From IMG/VR virus record IMGVR_UViG_2541047807_000012: 43,752 nt of DNA; one strand, given 5' to 3'. The DNA comes from a virus. Taxonomy: Duplodnaviria > Heunggongvirae > Uroviricota > Caudoviricetes. How positions within the stretch are numbered: the stretch's first letter is position 1; every line of letters begins with the position of its first letter. Below, in pieces: positions 23,671 through 33,395 of the stretch. A program made the position numbers and the translations under genes. Below the pieces are notes generated by a model. That model did no database searches, was not told the origin of the DNA, and was given only the letters and a program-made list of their open reading frames with translations.

Positions 23671-25178
23671 TGGCAATTCTTGATGATGTGATTGGCGTTT
23701 TTTCACCAGGATGGAAAGCGGCAAGGCTGCGTTCCCGTGCGGTGATCCAGGCTTATGAGGCCGTAAAAACGACGCGGACACACAAAGCCCGGCGGGAAAA
23801 CCGAACTGCCGACCAGTTAAGCCAGTACGGGGCCGTGTCGTTACGTGAGCAGGCCCGTTACCTTGATAACAACCACGATCTGGTTATTGGTGTATTTGAC
23901 AAGCTGGAAGAACGGGTGGTGGGGAAAAACGGGATTATTGTCGAGCCACATCCGGTATTACGCAATGGGGCCATTGCCCGTGATCTGGCAGCGGAGATTC
24001 GCACCCGATGGAGTGAATGGTCTGTCAGCCCGGAAGTCACCGGGCAGTTTACCCGTCCGATGCTGGAACGTCTGATGCTGCGTACCTGGCTGCGCGATGG
24101 TGAGGTGTTTGCCCAGATGGTTTCCGGGCGCATAAACAGCCTGACGCCTTCTGCCGGTGTTCATTTCTGGCTGGAGGCGCTCGAGCCAGACTTTATTCCC
24201 ATGACCAGTGATGAGAGCAACAGGCTGAATCAGGGCGTGTTTGTTGATGACTGGGGGCGTCCCGAAAAATATCTGGTGTATAAAAGCCGTCCCGTATCCG
24301 GACGGCAGATGGAAACCAAAGAAGTGGATGCAGAGCGAATGCTGCATCTTAAATTTGTTCGCCGTCTGCACCAGATGCGCGGGACGTCTTTGTTGTCCGG
24401 TGTGCTGATCCGCCTCAGTGCCCTGAAAGAGTATGAAGATTCTGAGCTGACTGCAGCAAGGATCGCCGCTGCTCTGGGGATGTACATCCGCAAAGGCGAC
24501 GGGCAGAGCTATGAACCGGATGGTAATGGCAGCAAGGATAAAGAACGCGAGCTTACCATTCAGCCAGGCATTATTTACGACGATCTGAAACCCGGCGAAG
24601 AAATTGGAATGGTGAAGTCGGATCGCCCCAATCCTAATCTTGAAACTTTTCGTAATGGTCAGTTGCGTGCAGTGGCGGCTGGCAGTCGTCTGAGTTTTTC
24701 CAGTACAGCGCGCAACTATAACGGCACTTACAGCGCCCAGCGTCAGGAGCTGGTTGAGTCTACTGATGGCTACCTGATCCTGCAGGACTGGTTTATTGGT
24801 GCCGTCACCCGCCCGATGTATCGTGCATGGCTGAAACAGGCTGTGGCATCCGGTGTTATCAGGTTACCCCGCGATCTTGACCGTTCTTCACTGTATACCG
24901 CGGTGTATTCCGGACCAGTGATGCCGTGGATTGACCCTGTTAAGGAGGCTGAGGCCTGGAAAATCCAGATTCGTGGTGGAGCGGCGACAGAATCAGACTG
25001 GGTACGTGCTGGTGGTCGTAATCCGGATGATGTCAAACGTCGGCGCAAGGCCGAAATTGATGAAAACCGCAAGCTGGATCTGGTATTTGATACCGATCCG
25101 GCCAGTGATAAAGGAGGCAGCAGTGCCGCAACGAAACGACAGGAGCCGCAGCACACCGACGACCAGTCCGAAGAATAA
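23670..25178 (+). CDS. B: Portal protein (lambda gpB family)
   Basis: Start at MAILDDVIGVFSPGWKA gives ~502 aa; position and similarity to lambda B. Confidence 0.9.
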   Translation: MAILDDVIGVFSPGWKAARLRSRAVIQAYEAVKTTRTHKARRENRTADQLSQYGAVSLREQARYLDNNHDLVIGVFDKLEERVVGKNGIIVEPHPVLRNGAIARDLAAEIRTRWSEWSVSPEVTGQFTRPMLERLMLRTWLRDGEVFAQMVSGRINSLTPSAGVHFWLEALEPDFIPMTSDESNRLNQGVFVDDWGRPEKYLVYKSRPVSGRQMETKEVDAERMLHLKFVRRLHQMRGTSLLSGVLIRLSALKEYEDSELTAARIAAALGMYIRKGDGQSYEPDGNGSKDKERELTIQPGIIYDDLKPGEEIGMVKSDRPNPNLETFRNGQLRAVAAGSRLSFSSTARNYNGTYSAQRQELVESTDGYLILQDWFIGAVTRPMYRAWLKQAVASGVIRLPRDLDRSSLYTAVYSGPVMPWIDPVKEAEAWKIQIRGGAATESDWVRAGGRNPDDVKRRRKAEIDENRKLDLVFDTDPASDKGGSSAATKRQEPQHTDDQSEE

Positions 25179-25191
25179 TTCCTGGTTCAGG

Positions 25192-27150
25192 ATGCAGGCT
25201 GGTCACCAGAGTGACGCGGATATTTATATTTATGACGAGATTGGTTTCTGGGGTGTTACAGCGAAGCAGTTTATCAGTGATCTGAATGCACTGGGCGATA
25301 TCACCCACATTAATCTCCATATTAATTCACCGGGTGGCGATGTCTTTGAAGGCATCGCCATTTTTAATGCGCTGAAAACACATGGTGCGTCCATTACCGT
25401 TTATGTCGACGGTATGGCGGCGTCAATGGCGTCGGTCATTGCGATGGTGGGAAACCCGGTCATTATGCCGGAAAACACCTTCATGATGATTCATAAACCA
25501 TTTGGCTTTACGGGCGGTAATGCGGAGGACATGCGCACCTATGCCGACCTGCTCGATAAAGTTGAGGCGGTTCTGTTACCCGCTTATGCACAGAAAACCG
25601 GGAAAACCACCGATGAAATTGCTGCCATGCTGGCGGATGAGACCTGGATGTCCGGTGCCGAATGTCTGGCACATGGATTTGCTGATCAGGTAACGCCAGC
25701 CGTTAAGGCAATGGCATGTATTCAGTCAAAACGTACAGAGGAATTTAAAAAGATGCCGGAATCCATTCGAAACATGATTACTCCGCCACGCAACAGTGCT
25801 CCACGCGTACAGGATGATGAACCTGCAGCCTCCCGGACGCCAGTGCAGGCAGCAGCACCCGTGGTGGATGAAAACAGCATCCGTGCGCAGGTCCTGGCAG
25901 AGCAAAAAGCGCGTGTAAACGGTATTAATGATCTGTTTGCCATGTTTGGCGGGCGTTATCAGTCGCTGCAGGCTCAGTGTCTTGCCGATCCTGAATGTTC
26001 GCTGGAGCAGGCCCGCGAAAAGCTGTTGAACGAGATGGGGCGCGAGTCCACGCCATCCAATAAAAATACCCCGGCTCATATTTATGCCGGTAACGGTAAT
26101 TTTGTGGGGGACGGGATCCGCCAGGCGCTGATGGCGCGTGCCGGATTTGAAAAAACCGAACGTGATAATGTCTACAACGGGATGACCCTGCGTGAATATG
26201 CCCGTATGTCACTGACTGAACGGGGTATTGGGGTTTCCAGTTATAACCCGATGCAGATGGTCGGTGCGGCGTTCACACACAGTACGTCTGACTTCGGTAA
26301 TATTCTGCTGGATGTTGCGAACAAAGCCATTCTGCAGGGCTGGGAAGATGCCCCTGAAACCTATGAACAGTGGACGCGGAAAGGTCAGTTGTCTGATTTT
26401 AAAATTGCCCATCGTGTGGGTATGGGGGGCTTCAGTGCTCTGCGTCAGGTGCGTGAAGGGGCGGAATATAAATACGTCACCACCGGAGATAAACAGGCCA
26501 CTATTGCACTGGCGACCTATGGCGAGCTGTTCAGTATCACCCGTCAGGCCATTATCAATGATGATCTGAATATGCTGACCGATGTCCCGATGAAACTGGG
26601 CCGTGCGGCGAAATCCACTATTGCCGATCTGGTTTATGCCATTCTGACGTCTAACCCGAAAATCTCCACAGATAATGTAAATCTGTTCGATAAAGCGAAA
26701 CATGCAAACGTACTGGAGAGCGCTGCAATGGACGTGGCATCGCTGGATAAAGCCCGCCAGTTGATGCGCGTTCAGAAAGAGGGGGAGCGTCATCTGAATA
26801 TTCGTCCTGCGTTCGTACTGGTACCGACGGCGATGGAGTCTGTTGCTAACCAGGTCATTCGCTCCTCAAGTGTCAAGGGGGCTGACATTAACGCCGGTAT
26901 TATTAACCCGGTGAAAGATTTTGCGACCGTTATTGCAGAGCCTCGTCTTGATGATAACAGCCAGACCACCTTCTACCTGGCTGCGTCAAAAGGCTCCGAT
27001 ACGATTGAAGTGGCTTATCTCAACGGTGTGGATACGCCATATATTGATCAGATGGAGGGCTTCAGTGTGGATGGCGTGACAACGAAAGTGCGTATTGACG
27101 CCGGTGTCGCGCCAGTTGATCACCGCGGTCTGGTGAAATGTACGGCGTAA
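25192..27150 (+). CDS. Fused prohead protease (ClpP/S49-like) - scaffold - HK97-fold major capsid protein
   Basis: N-terminal ClpP-like protease motifs (INSPGGDVFEG...MAASMAS...HKP), a Pro/Ala-rich linker, and a C-terminal ~350 aa capsid-like domain, all in one 653 aa ORF. Confidence 0.85.
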   Translation: MQAGHQSDADIYIYDEIGFWGVTAKQFISDLNALGDITHINLHINSPGGDVFEGIAIFNALKTHGASITVYVDGMAASMASVIAMVGNPVIMPENTFMMIHKPFGFTGGNAEDMRTYADLLDKVEAVLLPAYAQKTGKTTDEIAAMLADETWMSGAECLAHGFADQVTPAVKAMACIQSKRTEEFKKMPESIRNMITPPRNSAPRVQDDEPAASRTPVQAAAPVVDENSIRAQVLAEQKARVNGINDLFAMFGGRYQSLQAQCLADPECSLEQAREKLLNEMGRESTPSNKNTPAHIYAGNGNFVGDGIRQALMARAGFEKTERDNVYNGMTLREYARMSLTERGIGVSSYNPMQMVGAAFTHSTSDFGNILLDVANKAILQGWEDAPETYEQWTRKGQLSDFKIAHRVGMGGFSALRQVREGAEYKYVTTGDKQATIALATYGELFSITRQAIINDDLNMLTDVPMKLGRAAKSTIADLVYAILTSNPKISTDNVNLFDKAKHANVLESAAMDVASLDKARQLMRVQKEGERHLNIRPAFVLVPTAMESVANQVIRSSSVKGADINAGIINPVKDFATVIAEPRLDDNSQTTFYLAASKGSDTIEVAYLNGVDTPYIDQMEGFSVDGVTTKVRIDAGVAPVDHRGLVKCTA

Positions 27151-28838: not shown

Positions 28839-29582
28839 ATGACCACACCAAATCCACTGGCAAAGACGAAAGGTGCGGGGACGACGTTCTGGATGTATAC
28901 CGGCAACGGCGACGCATTTGCGAACCCTTTGTCGGACACTGACTGGCTGCGTCTTGCGATGGTGAAGGATCTGCAACCTGGCGAAATGACCGCTGATGCA
29001 GAAGATGATACTTATCTCGATGATGAAGATGCAGACTGGAAAACGACAACCCAGGGGCAGAAATCCGTCGGTGATACTTCGGCGACGCTGGCCTGGCGTC
29101 CGGGTGACAGCGGGCAGAAAAAACTGGTTCAGTTGTTCGACTCCGGTGAAGTCTGCGCGTTTCGTATCAAATATCCCAACGGTACTGTTGATGTTTTCCG
29201 TGGCTGGCTGAGTTCACTGGGTAAAACCATTGCCTCAAAAGACGTGATGACCCGCACCGTGAAAATCAGCGGTGTGGGGCGTCCATATCTGGCAGAGGAG
29301 GGCACTGAAACCGTGGGCGTTACCGGGCTGACGGTGGCACCGGCATCCGCCAGTGTCAATGTGGGAGCAACCACCACGCTGACCTTTACAGTAAAACCTG
29401 ACGGAGCCAGTGACAAAGCGATCAGTGTGCATTCGACAGATCCACAGACTGCCACGGTGACCCTGAACGGGCTTGTGGCCACGGTGAAAGGCGTGAAGCA
29501 GGGCAGTGTCAGCATTGTGGGCATGACTTCTGACGGCGATTTTGTGGCAGTGGCTACGGTGGCTGTCAGCGCCGCAGGTTAA
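28839..29582 (+). CDS. V: Major tail tube protein V with C-terminal Ig-like (Big_2) domain
   Basis: Start at MTTPNPLAKTKGAGTTFWMY; C-terminal Ig-like repeat region as in lambda gpV. Confidence 0.85.
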   Translation: MTTPNPLAKTKGAGTTFWMYTGNGDAFANPLSDTDWLRLAMVKDLQPGEMTADAEDDTYLDDEDADWKTTTQGQKSVGDTSATLAWRPGDSGQKKLVQLFDSGEVCAFRIKYPNGTVDVFRGWLSSLGKTIASKDVMTRTVKISGVGRPYLAEEGTETVGVTGLTVAPASASVNVGATTTLTFTVKPDGASDKAISVHSTDPQTATVTLNGLVATVKGVKQGSVSIVGMTSDGDFVAVATVAVSAAG

Positions 29583-29602
29583 CAGGACGATACTCATCAT
29601 TT

Positions 29603-29626
29603 GCCCCGGTTATCCGGGGCTTTTTT
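29603..29626 (+). terminator. Terminator-like hairpin after V
   Basis: Hairpin GCCCCGGttatCCGGGGC followed by TTTTTTG. Confidence 0.55.
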
Positions 29627-29639
29627 GCAGGTGGAGAAC

Positions 29640-30029
29640 ATGATGTTTCTGAAACAGGGCACGTTTAATTATGAAAAGCAGTCCGTGGTGCTCAGTGAGC
29701 TGTCCGGGCTGCAGAGAATTGAATATCTGGCGTTTGTTCAGCAGCGAACGGCAAAGTTTGATGCCGAAGAGGGAGAACTGCCGGAGGCTGAACGACAGAT
29801 TGCTTTTCTGCGGATGGGGATGGATATCAATGCCTGGCTGGTTTCCCGCTCACTGTGGAATGCGGAACAGTCTCAGGATGTTGAGACGCTTTGCGCATCC
29901 GTTATTACAACATGGTCGTATGATGCCCTGGGAGCGGGGGCGGAGATGGTTCTGTCGCTGAGCGGTATGGGAGCCATTGAGAATGCCGGGGATTTGGAGC
30001 ATGAGGTGCTGACGCCGGAAAAGTCCTGA
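29640..30029 (+). CDS. G: Tail assembly chaperone G
   Basis: MMFLKQGTFNYEKQSVVLSELSGLQRIEYLAF resembles lambda G (MFLKTESFEHNGVTVTLSELSALQRIEHLA). Confidence 0.8.
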   Translation: MMFLKQGTFNYEKQSVVLSELSGLQRIEYLAFVQQRTAKFDAEEGELPEAERQIAFLRMGMDINAWLVSRSLWNAEQSQDVETLCASVITTWSYDALGAGAEMVLSLSGMGAIENAGDLEHEVLTPEKS

Positions 30030-30037
30030 CGCGGGAA

Positions 30038-30367
30038 ATGCAGTTTGTCATGCGGCTTGCCCGGGAGTTCCGGCGGGCAGACTGGCGGCGGATGCTGTCG
30101 GAAATGTCGGCCACTGAGCTTGGTGAGTGGGGCGATTATTTCCGGATGCAGAGTTTCAGTGATGTGTGGATGGATGCGCAGTTTGCCTCGCTGAAGGCAT
30201 TGATCGTGAGAATGGTGTCCGGCAGCAGTGATGCTGCGGTGGCTGATTTCAGCCTTTTACCGGAAGAGAACGGGATACCGGAGCGAACGGACGAAGAACT
30301 GATGCATCTTGGGGAAGGTATTTCCGGAGGTGTGCGTTATGGACCAGATAGCCAACCTGGTCATTGA
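30038..30367 (+). CDS. T: Tail assembly chaperone T segment (expressed as G-T fusion by -1 frameshift)
   Basis: ORF in the -1 frame relative to G, open from 30005; slippery-like CGGAAAAG at 30016-30023 near the G stop, analogous to lambda GGGAAAG. Confidence 0.7.
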   Translation: MQFVMRLAREFRRADWRRMLSEMSATELGEWGDYFRMQSFSDVWMDAQFASLKALIVRMVSGSSDAAVADFSLLPEENGIPERTDEELMHLGEGISGGVRYGPDSQPGH

Positions 30368-33300
30368 TTTGGGGATTGATGCGGCAGAGTTTAAAAATGA
30401 AATTCCCCGTATCAAAAACCTTCTGAATGGTGCAGCCAGCGATGCAGAAAGGTCTTCTGCCCGTATGCAGCGTTTTATGGAGCGTCAGACTCAGGCTGCC
30501 CGGCAGACAATGCAGGCGGCTTCTTCGGCTGCAACAGCCGCATCCGTCCATGCGCAGACGGTGGAGAAGAGCGCACAGGCTCATGAACGCATGGCCCGCG
30601 AGGTGGAGCAAACCCGCCAGCGTATGGAGGCACTGAGCCAGAAAATGCGCGAGGAACAGGCGCAGGCCATGGCTCTGGCGGAGGCTCAGGATAAAGCGGC
30701 TGCCGCGTTTTATCGTCAGATTGACAGTGTGAAACAGGCCAGTGCGGGGCTGCAGGAATTACAGCGTATTCAGCAGCAGATCCGACAGGCCAGAAACAGT
30801 GGCGGGATTGGTCAGCAGGATTATCTGGCGCTGATTTCTGAGGTTACGGCGAAAACCCGTGTTCTTACGCAGGCTGAGGCAGAGGCTACCCGACAGAAAG
30901 TGGCGTTTATCCGTCAGCTTAAAGAGCAGGCAACCCGCCAGAATCTTTCTTCTTCTGAGTTGCTTCGTGCTAAGGCTGCCCAGCTGGGGGTAAGCAGTGC
31001 TGCAGAAGTGTATATCCGCAAAATGGAGCAGGCAGGAAAAGCCACGCATTCGCTGGGTCTGAAAAGTGCAGCGGCCCGCCAGGAGATAGGCGTTCTGATA
31101 GGTGAACTGGCTCGCGGCAATTTAGGGGCGCTGAGGGGATCCGGGATAACGCTGGCTAACCGTGCCGGATGGATAGACACACTGATGTCACCGAAAGGCA
31201 TGATGCTGGGCGGGGTTATTGGCGGTATTGCCGCGGCTGTCTATGGTCTGGGTAAAGCCTGGTATGACGGTCAGAAGGAGGGGGAAGAATTTAACCGCCA
31301 GCTGTCGCTGACGGGGCATTATGCCGGAGTCACTGCCGGGCAGCTGTGGACGCTCAGTCGTGCTATTTCCGGGAATGGTATCACGCAACATGCTGCAGCC
31401 GGTGCGCTGGCTCAGGTGGTGGGGAGTGGTGCATTTCGTGGAAACGATATCGGTATGGTGGCGAGAGCTGCCGCACAGATGGAGCGATCGGTTGGTCAGT
31501 CGGTCAGCGATACCATAAGTCAGTTTAAGCGGCTGAAGGATGATCCTGTAAATGCCGCGAAGGCTCTGGACAATGAGCTGCATTTTCTTACTGCCACTCA
31601 GCTTGAGCAGATACGCGTCCTTGGGGAACAGGGGCGGTCCAGTGATGCGGCACGGATAGCCATGTCTGCACTGGCAGAGGAAACCGGTCGGCGTACTGCG
31701 GATATTGATAATAACCTCAATGCGCTGGGTAGTACGCTGCAAACCTTGTCTGACTGGTGGAAGCAGTTCTGGGATGCGGCCATGAATATTGGTCGTGAAG
31801 ATTCGCTGGATGCGCAGATTGCCACTTTGCAGGAGAAAGTGTCGCGGGCGAAAAGACTCCCCTGGACGGCATCATCTTCTCAGGTTGAATACGATCAGCA
31901 GCGTCTTAACGATCTTCAGGAGAAAAAACGCCAGAAGGATTTGCAGGATGCAAAAGAGCAGGCAGAGCGGAATTATCAGGAGCAACAGAAACGCCGTAAT
32001 GCTGAAAATGCTGCACTGAATCGGATGAATGAAACGGAAGCTGCACGACATCAGCGTGAAATTGCGCGTATTAATGCCATGCAGTACGCCGATCAGGCTG
32101 TCAGGGATGCTGCGATACAACGTGAAAATGAACGTTACGAGAAAGCCCTGGCATCCGGTAAGAAAAAAACACGCGAAACCCGTAATGATGAGGCCACCCG
32201 GTTATTGCTGCAGTACAGCCAGCAACAGGCACAGGTGGAAGGACAGATTGCTGCTGCAAGACAGTCAGCAGGCATTGCCACTGACAGGATGACAGAAGCG
32301 CATAAACAGCTTCTGGCTCTGCAGCAGCGCATCAGCGATCTGGACGGGAAAAAACTGACGGCAGATGAAAAGAGTGTGCTGGCCCGTAAAGATGAACTGA
32401 TTCAGGCACTGACGCTGCTGGATGTAAAACAGCAGGAGCTTCAGAAACAGACGGCACTCAACGATCTGAAGAAAAAAACAATTCAGCTGACCAGTCAACT
32501 GGCTGAAGAAGAGCGCGCTCAGCGTCAGCAACATGACCTGGATATCGCCACGGTGGGTATGGGTGATCAGCAGCGGCAGCGATATCAGGTACAACTGAGT
32601 CTTCGCCAGAAATACCAGCAACAGCTGGAGCAGTTGAGGCGGGATAGTGAGCAGAAAGGGACATATAACACGGATGACTACAGAAAGGCCGAGCAGGCGC
32701 TGACGGAGAGCCTGAACCGACAACTGAATGAGAATCGCCGTTACTGGCAACAGCTTGAAATTGCTCAGGGTGACTGGAAAAACGGAGTCCTGCGTGCACT
32801 CCAGAATGTCACTGAGAATGCGGATAACACAGCCGGGACAGTGGAACAGTTGTTCACGTCTGCGTTCAGTAGCATGAGTGACTGGCTGGCGACATTCTGT
32901 ACTACAGGCAAACTCAATTTCAAATCCTTCACCTCTTCTGTGCTGTCAGATATGTCCAGAATCATGGCTCAGATAGCTTTAATGAAAGCGGTAAAAGGCA
33001 TTGCTTCCGCGCTGCCTTTTGATTTTGTAGCTAATGCTGATGGCGGTGTTTATCAGTCGGCTGATTTGAGTCGCTACAGTGGCACGGTGGTTAACCGTCC
33101 GACGTTTTTTGCTTTTGCAAAAGGCGCGGGTGTGATGGGGGAAGCTGGGCCTGAAGCCATTCTACCACTGCGTCGTGGTGCTGACGGTAAGCTGGGGGTT
33201 GTGGCGGATATTGGTGGTTCAGGTATGGCGATGTTTGCCCCGCAGTACAACATCGAGATCAATAACGATGGCACGAACGGGCAGATAGGTCCGGCTGCCC

Positions 33301-33395
33301 TGAAGGTGGTTTATGACCTTGGGAAAAAAGCGGCAGCGGACTTTATGCAACAGCAGGCCCGTGATGGTGGTCGGTTAAGTGGAGCATATCGGTAA
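30339..33395 (+). CDS. H: Tail tape measure protein H
   Basis: 1019 aa; N-terminus (LVIDLGIDAAEF) and C-terminus (NNDGTNGQIGPAALKVVYD...RDGG) resemble lambda gpH; long coiled-coil middle. Confidence 0.9.
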   Translation: MDQIANLVIDLGIDAAEFKNEIPRIKNLLNGAASDAERSSARMQRFMERQTQAARQTMQAASSAATAASVHAQTVEKSAQAHERMAREVEQTRQRMEALSQKMREEQAQAMALAEAQDKAAAAFYRQIDSVKQASAGLQELQRIQQQIRQARNSGGIGQQDYLALISEVTAKTRVLTQAEAEATRQKVAFIRQLKEQATRQNLSSSELLRAKAAQLGVSSAAEVYIRKMEQAGKATHSLGLKSAAARQEIGVLIGELARGNLGALRGSGITLANRAGWIDTLMSPKGMMLGGVIGGIAAAVYGLGKAWYDGQKEGEEFNRQLSLTGHYAGVTAGQLWTLSRAISGNGITQHAAAGALAQVVGSGAFRGNDIGMVARAAAQMERSVGQSVSDTISQFKRLKDDPVNAAKALDNELHFLTATQLEQIRVLGEQGRSSDAARIAMSALAEETGRRTADIDNNLNALGSTLQTLSDWWKQFWDAAMNIGREDSLDAQIATLQEKVSRAKRLPWTASSSQVEYDQQRLNDLQEKKRQKDLQDAKEQAERNYQEQQKRRNAENAALNRMNETEAARHQREIARINAMQYADQAVRDAAIQRENERYEKALASGKKKTRETRNDEATRLLLQYSQQQAQVEGQIAAARQSAGIATDRMTEAHKQLLALQQRISDLDGKKLTADEKSVLARKDELIQALTLLDVKQQELQKQTALNDLKKKTIQLTSQLAEEERAQRQQHDLDIATVGMGDQQRQRYQVQLSLRQKYQQQLEQLRRDSEQKGTYNTDDYRKAEQALTESLNRQLNENRRYWQQLEIAQGDWKNGVLRALQNVTENADNTAGTVEQLFTSAFSSMSDWLATFCTTGKLNFKSFTSSVLSDMSRIMAQIALMKAVKGIASALPFDFVANADGGVYQSADLSRYSGTVVNRPTFFAFAKGAGVMGEAGPEAILPLRRGADGKLGVVADIGGSGMAMFAPQYNIEINNDGTNGQIGPAALKVVYDLGKKAAADFMQQQARDGGRLSGAYR

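Follow-up and report, generated by a model that had tools for sequence, protein, structure and literature searches.

A probable lambda-type G/G-T programmed −1 frameshift site with an N15-type heptamer in the tail genes of a lambdoid Escherichia coli phage or prophage

Introduction

The tail genes G and T of phage lambda are joined by a low-level frameshift that yields G and GT at a ratio of 30:1, is critical to the assembly of the tail and is widely conserved (PMC5009743). The tape measure protein is bound by G itself and, within GT, by the G portion; the T portion attaches to the major tail protein (PMC5009743). Work on the lambda G/G-T system includes Levin, Hendrix and Casjens (1993) and Xu, Hendrix and Duda (2004, 2013, 2014), with a review in PMC5009743. 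Two further loci carry annotations of the same event. In phage N15, the sequence GGAAAAG is labeled in GenBank with the misc_feature 'slippery sequence for -1 translational frameshift', and the Gifsy-2 record describes its T ORF as 'part of G+G' frameshift hybrid protein; Lambda gpT homolog'. The N15 site stands as an annotation, a measured event not having been found in the literature. Literature searches on N15 and frameshifting and on mEp460 yielded nothing about this site, and a direct measurement was not found for the phage described here or for any G-T site of the GGAAAAG type.

The heptamer itself lies outside the usual definition. In a systematic study in which slippery sequences were defined as X_XXZ_ZZN and 64 heptamers were analyzed, GGAAAAG falls outside the definition (PMC4066793). 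Peng et al. (2019) included G GAA AAG as a 'less slippery' control in a reconstituted E. coli system, where it gave mainly the 0-frame product (PMC6924986), and the re-pairing of tRNA-Glu from GAA to GGA carries a second-position mismatch (PMC6924986). Here, a copy of such a site between the G and T genes of an E. coli phage or prophage is analyzed by sequence comparison. Our analysis confirms the site and supports its reading as the already known lambda-type G/G-T −1 programmed frameshift with an N15-type heptamer, a genuine feature but an ordinary one.

Results

The tail module

The window, by which we mean the whole stretch of 43,752 nucleotides that was analyzed, is identified by DNA comparison as a lambdoid E. 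coli phage or prophage, with a DNA identity of 98–99.6% to the Escherichia phages phi458, Ayreon, cdtI and mEp460. The module is found in 1848 of 5426 complete E. coli genomes. Its tail genes run in the order V-like, G, T frame and H-like, followed by M-like and L-like genes, and two small ORFs lie downstream of the major tail gene and ahead of the tape measure gene, as expected for the family. The following features make up the module around G and T.

28839..29582, + strand: lambda V-like gene for the major tail tube, carrying a Big_2 Ig domain at the C terminus (Pfam Phage_TTP_12 223 bits, Big_2 44 bits)
29603..29626, + strand: intrinsic terminator-like hairpin and T-run between V and G (7 G-C pairs, 4-nt loop, T6)
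29643..30029, + strand: gene G, tail assembly chaperone, 128 aa when counted from the second ATG (TIGR01674, PF06894)
30023..30367, + strand: T segment in the −1 frame, 114 aa and stop (TIGR01715, PF06223)
30339..33395, + strand: tape measure gene, lambda H-like (Pfam TMP_2 168 bits, Tape_meas_lam_C 82 bits)

The V-like gene is the upstream neighbor that defines the tail module, and the position of its ATG was inferred from the ORF translation and from the 744-nt V genes of Ayreon and mEp460. The records of Ayreon, mEp460 and N15 label the hairpin that separates V from G as a terminator.

Both small reading frames belong to the lambda families. G is a lambda gpG equivalog, which matches TIGR01674 (phage_lambda_G) with 190.7 bits (cut-off 74.45), PF06894 (Pfam Phage_TAC_2) with 134.9 bits and phrog_42 with E = 1e-51. 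Similarly, T is a lambda gpT equivalog with 136.5 bits to TIGR01715 (phage_lam_T, cut-off 77.35) and 56 bits to PF06223 (Pfam Phage_tail_T). The PHROG profile phrog_32165, which derives from fused GT proteins, hits the two halves in their order. The second ATG, 29643, is the most likely start of G, because the homologues all begin with MFLK, PGAP places the start there in a 99.9% identical copy of the region, and the Shine-Dalgarno (SD) spacing fits, with GGAG about 5–6 nt before 29643 and an anti-SD pairing of −6.4 kcal/mol at 5 nt; the first ATG, 29640, is a less likely candidate. G ends at the stop TGA 30027..30029, and the T frame ends with TGA 30365..30367. The H-like gene overlaps the end of T by 29 nt and is preceded by a strong SD, GGAGGTG, 6 nt upstream, with an anti-SD pairing of −10.8 kcal/mol.

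The G/T overlap and its heptamer

The ORF downstream of G, listed as 30038..30367, lies in the −1 frame relative to G. A TGA at 30002..30004 interrupts this frame, which is open from 30005, before the G stop, as the first-pass annotation had claimed. Since the −1 frame opens at 30005 and G stops at 30029, any join of G to T must occur within these 25 nt.

30005..30029, + strand: G/T overlap of 25 nt, from the opening of the −1 frame to the G stop
30017..30023, + strand: slippery heptamer G GAA AAG, with a P-site Glu and an A-site Lys codon in the G frame

The G-frame reading at the site is GAG GTG CTG ACG CCG GAA AAG TCC TGA, and the −1 frame translation at the junction is ...LTPEK-VLTREMQFVMRLAREFRRADWRRML... 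(the hyphen marks the change of frame). G GAA AAG is the sole in-frame heptamer of the overlap that permits re-pairing. The other in-frame heptamers, GGTGCTG, GCTGACG, GACGCCG and GCCGGAA, were rejected as candidates, re-pairing being impossible in each. The first-pass annotation had described an 8-mer, CGGAAAAG, as the slippery sequence at 30016..30023; the position is correct and the site is there, but the functional unit is GGAAAAG at 30017..30023, with C30016 outside it. The analogy that it drew to lambda GGGAAAG is borne out column for column by the alignment with lambda G GGA AAG, and the site is identical to that of N15. It is also correct in having tRNA-Lys slip from AAG to AAA, and its assignment of the locus as the −1 frameshift site of a G-T tail chaperone is supported by the gpG and gpT equivalogs, the position in the tail module and the alignment of the motif.

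As a bare word, GGAAAAG is not significantly enriched in the window (11 copies, 6.9 expected). The word count being unremarkable, it is the position and phase of the heptamer, and not the word itself, that count as evidence. At the in-frame positions of the long ORFs in the window, N NNA AAG has a frequency of 0.36% and the three heptamers used by the family have one of 0.025%. For an overlap of 5–6 codons, the chance of an in-frame N NNA AAG is about 2%, and that of one of the three family heptamers is about 0.15%.

Conservation of the heptamer across homologous loci

Homologous loci were gathered from 13 annotated phages, together with 69 from one-genome-per-species bacterial contigs and 80 viral contigs. 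Conservation counts refer to the loci with a complete G (n = 157), which were collapsed in two ways, into 55 distinct 67-nt contexts and into 30 clusters at about 85% protein similarity. The host genera include Escherichia, Salmonella, Proteus, Providencia, Xenorhabdus, Serratia, Edwardsiella, Erwinia, Enterobacter, Kosakonia, Phytobacter and Kluyvera. The script that collected the loci required an in-frame A AAG, so the presence of AAG in 55 of 55 contexts means that it was always found and is not an independent statistic; the script imposed neither the conserved heptamer base 1 nor the conserved P-site codon.

A heptamer of the family occupies the homologous site in all 157 loci, with GGAAAAG in 133, the lambda form GGGAAAG in 23 and AAAAAAG in 1. 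The corresponding counts are 45, 9 and 1 in the 55 contexts and 25, 4 and 1 in the 30 clusters. The label 'near-canonical' in the first-pass annotation needs correcting, in that GGAAAAG is the majority form of the family and yet formally non-canonical: its P-site tRNA-Glu has to re-pair from GAA to GGA with a G.U at the second position (PMC6924986), and with G, G and A as bases 1–3 it falls outside X_XXZ_ZZN. It would work like a tandem site although it is not a formal member of that class. The junction Lys codon falls in a column of the G alignment that never varies and lines up with the AAG of lambda G GGA AAG. In some of the homologous loci, the overlap is as short as 16 nt.

The synonymous positions of the heptamer are frozen. 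Codon −1, which precedes the P-site codon, specifies Pro, Ala, Leu or Ser, each from a four-fold degenerate box; base 1 of the heptamer is the wobble base of this codon, and 29 of 30 clusters have G there. The sole exception is an A, and it belongs to the AAAAAAG variant, where it again matches the logic of the heptamer. In the 55 contexts, a P-site Glu is always GAA (45 of 45) and a P-site Gly always GGA (9 of 9). Codons −2 to −6, by comparison, have any of the four bases at their wobble positions; the Thr of codon −2, for example, is encoded by ACG, ACT, ACC or ACA. Within the clade of the window, the flanks vary (GTG or GCG at codon −4, the linker further upstream, TCC or TCA downstream) while the heptamer is invariant. 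Frozen synonymous sites of this kind are the signature that would be expected of a nucleotide-level signal with re-pairing in both the P site and the A site.

Proposed mechanism

A programmed −1 ribosomal frameshift at G GAA AAG near the end of G, yielding a G-T fusion, is the reading that we consider very probable. We infer the slippage itself, its efficiency and the roles of both products as follows. Most ribosomes would read GAA-AAG-TCC-stop and release G, a protein of 128 aa. A small fraction would slip back by one base with tRNA-Glu on GAA in the P site and tRNA-Lys on AAG in the A site, so that tRNA-Lys would come to lie on AAA with perfect pairing and tRNA-Glu on GGA with a G.U at the middle position. 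The next codon would be GTC (30023..30025), and the T frame would then be read to 30367. The predicted product is a 241-aa G-T fusion, join(29643..30023,30023..30367), with the junction ...LTPEK-VLTREMQF.... The junction residue being Lys, trypsin and Lys-C would be unsuitable for mass spectrometry of the junction peptide. By homology with lambda, the G part would bind the tape measure protein and the T part would recruit the major tail protein, and for tails to assemble correctly the GT:G ratio would have to be low and fixed. A product that is needed at only a few percent is compatible with a weak heptamer. For lambda, Levin et al. in 1993 reportedly found the frameshift to be about 4% efficient, with no stimulatory structure required.

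Stimulatory elements

A downstream stem-loop or pseudoknot was not found at this site. The segment 30024..30110 folds no better than its shuffles (z = 0.08; 101 of 200 shuffles as good), and an Rfam scan of 29500..30500 gave no match save a meaningless lncRNA hit with E = 0.99. A downstream stimulatory structure is rejected on these two grounds. Upstream of the heptamer, one SD-like element is present.

30003..30008, + strand: SD-like GAGGTG, 6 bp to the 16S 3′ end, −6.9 kcal/mol, 8 nt upstream of the heptamer

GAGGTG is a candidate frameshift stimulator, possible but unproven. In a reading modeled on dnaX, it would pair with 16S rRNA and boost slippage on a weak heptamer, a role that we hold tentatively and regard as unlikely. 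The anti-SD pairing of −6.9 kcal/mol is as strong as that of G's own ribosome-binding site, the spacing of 8–10 nt falls within the experimental stimulatory range of 6–17 nt (PMC4066793), and the heptamer alone is weak in vitro. In 7 of 30 clusters, GAGG recurs upstream of the heptamer at a distance of exactly 10 nt, and in about 10 of the 30 an SD-like 4-mer lies at 9–11 nt, but GAG is at the same time a conserved Glu codon, and protein homology largely explains its fixed position. Codon choice points the same way: among the cluster contexts, GAG is used over GAA in 7 of 10 cases when the next codon starts with G and in 6 of 11 when it starts with C, which is no difference. The mEp460/cdtI variant of the element, GAGGCG, provides only 4 bp, N15 and lambda are without such an element altogether, and the downstream hairpin is absent (z = 0.08).

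A broader and equally speculative proposal, which we consider doubtful, is that the strict conservation of a heptamer that slips poorly in vitro, its four-fold degenerate base 1 included, means that tRNA-Glu tolerates the middle G.U in tandem slippage in vivo and that the upstream GAGG(TG), perhaps with the nearby stop, tunes the yield in the cdtI/Gifsy-2 clade. The site would then be a distinct, weakly stimulated variant of the G-T frameshift, with a GT:G ratio unlike that of lambda.

Which tRNAs slip

The frameshift could be real and yet involve tRNA-Lys only, which would slip on A AAG in the A site or, one step later, in the P site, with the preceding GGA irrelevant. The protein product would be identical. 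Such a single-tRNA slip would avoid the second-position mismatch of the GAA to GGA re-pairing, it accords with the in vitro data in which G GAA AAG acts like a one-tRNA site (PMC6924986), and Z_ZZN tetramers are a recognized class of −1 motif in E. coli (PMC4066793). The codon usage of the homologous loci makes it improbable nonetheless, because the G at heptamer base 1 in 29 of 30 clusters, with the A of AAAAAAG as the remaining case, is kept despite four-fold degeneracy and is what P-site re-pairing requires, and because the P-site codon is only ever GAA, GGA or AAA. The conserved base 1 thus argues that P-site re-pairing by tRNA-Glu still matters in vivo, as tandem slippage on the whole heptamer would predict.

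T as a probable part of a fusion

T is most likely made solely as the C-terminal portion of the 241-aa G-T fusion. Beginning with the junction Lys, the T-frame sequences of 20 diverse homologues can be aligned free of gaps, with the consensus K-[VA]-[LFVYC]-x-x-[EQA]-x-x-F-x-x-x-L-[AS]-[RH]-E-[FM]-x-R-x-D-W-R. Public annotation instead starts T at an ATG beyond the G stop.

30038..30040, + strand: 'T start' ATG of public annotation, 9 nt after the G stop, in the T frame

If this ATG were used, T would be independently translated, and the overlap and the heptamer would be incidental. The ATG is in frame 9 nt past the G stop, translational coupling after that stop is conceivable, and a 109-aa T CDS from ATG 30038 appears in the PGAP, mEp460, cdtI and Tritos records. 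The codon is not conserved, however: its column holds M, L, R, H or V in the homologues, and the first Met of the T frame varies from residue 6 to residue 52, in many homologues inside or beyond LAREFRRPDWR, the most conserved motif. A usable SD was not found before ATG 30038, the best anti-SD pairing being −4.3 kcal/mol at 0-nt spacing, compared with −10.8 kcal/mol for H. Conserved T-frame residues (V, L/F and E) already lie upstream of the ATG, and independent translation leaves the frozen synonymous sites of the heptamer unexplained. Moreover, the functional species in lambda is G-T (PMC5009743). ATG 30038 is probably not an initiation codon, and we judge independent translation of T to be very unlikely.

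The fusion is absent from the annotations that we inspected. A joined G-T CDS was not found in the Ayreon, mEp460, Tritos or PGAP-annotated E. coli chromosome records; the checked public records list G and T separately, with the T CDS starting at ATG 30038 or a later one. Fusions of G and T at the DNA level occur in the protein database only as four singletons, each with 8–28 aa deleted around the junction. These four proteins are probably decayed prophages or assembly errors, uninformative on the mechanism of the G-T frameshift.

Transcriptional slippage, in which an A would be gained or lost within the A4 run by RNA polymerase, can be set aside as extremely unlikely: a one-base deletion in the mRNA would bring T in frame and an A run is present, but the run has four A only and three in the lambda form GGGAAAG, the known runs with productive slippage are far longer than four A, and the conservation extends to the flanking G and to codon phase, a pattern that suits tRNA re-pairing. 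The lambda event, too, is described as ribosomal frameshifting (PMC5009743).

Discussion

The G-T frameshift is a textbook recoding event, which this copy follows closely, and the scientific weight of the locus is small. Its practical value lies in annotation, in that the checked public records of a very common E. coli prophage module omit the fusion product. Furthermore, GGAAAAG is the dominant heptamer of the family and lies outside X_XXZ_ZZN, and predictors built on that definition are expected to miss such sites.

Comparison with known systems

The E. coli dnaX site (A AAA AAG) shares the A-site re-pairing of tRNA-Lys from AAG to AAA and an SD-like element about 10 nt upstream. It differs in its P-site codon and in its downstream hairpin, which has no counterpart here. 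The frameshift here would extend the protein, whereas that of dnaX truncates it, and a low efficiency is expected here.

In lambda, the order V-G-T-H, the G and T families and the −1 frame of T are the same, and the shift site lies in the same alignment column with the same AAG Lys codon at its end. The lambda heptamer is G GGA AAG, in contrast to G GAA AAG here, where tRNA-Glu occupies the P site and a middle G.U follows the shift. Past the heptamer, the G tail has five codons in lambda and one here, and the overlap measures 64 nt in lambda and 25 nt here. The proteins are about 33–36% identical, with a T part of 144 aa in lambda as opposed to 114 aa.

N15 is closer at the site itself. Its gp14/gene 15 junction (AF064539) has an identical GGAAAAG in the same frame and the same column and a T part of 115 aa, although its proteins are about 34–36% identical to those of the window, its G tail has five codons and it lacks an upstream SD-like GAGG.

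Among annotated relatives from beyond the E. coli clade, Gifsy-2 (STM1039/STM1041.1n) is the nearest, at 54% identity. Its linker differs, there is no ATG near its junction, and its first T-frame Met is at residue 24. The two sites share CCG GAA AAG TCC TGA, a one-codon G tail and GAGG 10 nt upstream.

Ends of the G and T genes

The 5′ end of G, the lambda gpG-like tail assembly chaperone gene, carries two adjacent ATG codons (29640..29645). The second, opening MFLK..., is the start used by the homologues and by the PGAP annotation of an E. coli chromosome, and the first is the annotated start in some phage records, among them those of Ayreon and mEp460 (390-nt CDS). Downstream of the heptamer proposed as the −1 frameshift site joining G to T (G GAA AAG, 30017..30023), the G tail of the homologues falls into three classes of 0, 1 or 5 codons, and that of the window is in the 1-codon class. 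In the Proteus/Providencia homologues (L025-L029 and L032), the G stop lies immediately 3′ of the heptamer (G GAA AAG TAG), and the G/T overlap shrinks to as little as 16 nt in some cases. At its 3′ end T overlaps the tape measure gene H by 29 nt, and the strong ribosome-binding site of H falls within the stretch that codes for T's conserved C-terminal motif, GGVRYG.

30322..30341, ribosome-binding site of H: GGAGGTG, −10.8 kcal/mol, 6 nt 5′ of the ATG at 30339

Other G/T database matches

G and T share one ORF in P0001, P0002, P0003 and P0019, rare proteins 212-233 aa long, each a singleton in the database, in which the fusion comes about by loss of 8-28 residues around the G-T junction; prophage decay or assembly errors probably account for them. 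Genome contig matches L061-L074, found in the assemblies of unrelated organisms such as Kitasatospora, Paenibacillus, Pseudoxanthomonas, Psychrobacter, Leeuwenhoekiella and Shewanella, have a G/T overlap identical to that of phage lambda, with coverage of ~1x per the contig names for most of them; these look like lambda DNA contamination. Separately, a locus labelled 'Bacillota MAG' (L016) holds an E. coli prophage G gene, 99% identical.

Features upstream of G

25189..27147 (listed ORF 24931..27150), protease-capsid fusion gene of the head module
29603..29626, intrinsic terminator-like hairpin between the major tail gene V and G: GCCCCGG-TTAT-CCGGGGC, then T6

The head-module gene is a fusion of protease and capsid genes, its one long ORF combining the domains of a ClpP-type protease (PF00574, 126 bits) and of a phage major capsid protein (PF25209, 186 bits). 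The hairpin may lower G-T-H transcription relative to V, and its counterpart is labelled a terminator in the records of Ayreon, mEp460 and N15.
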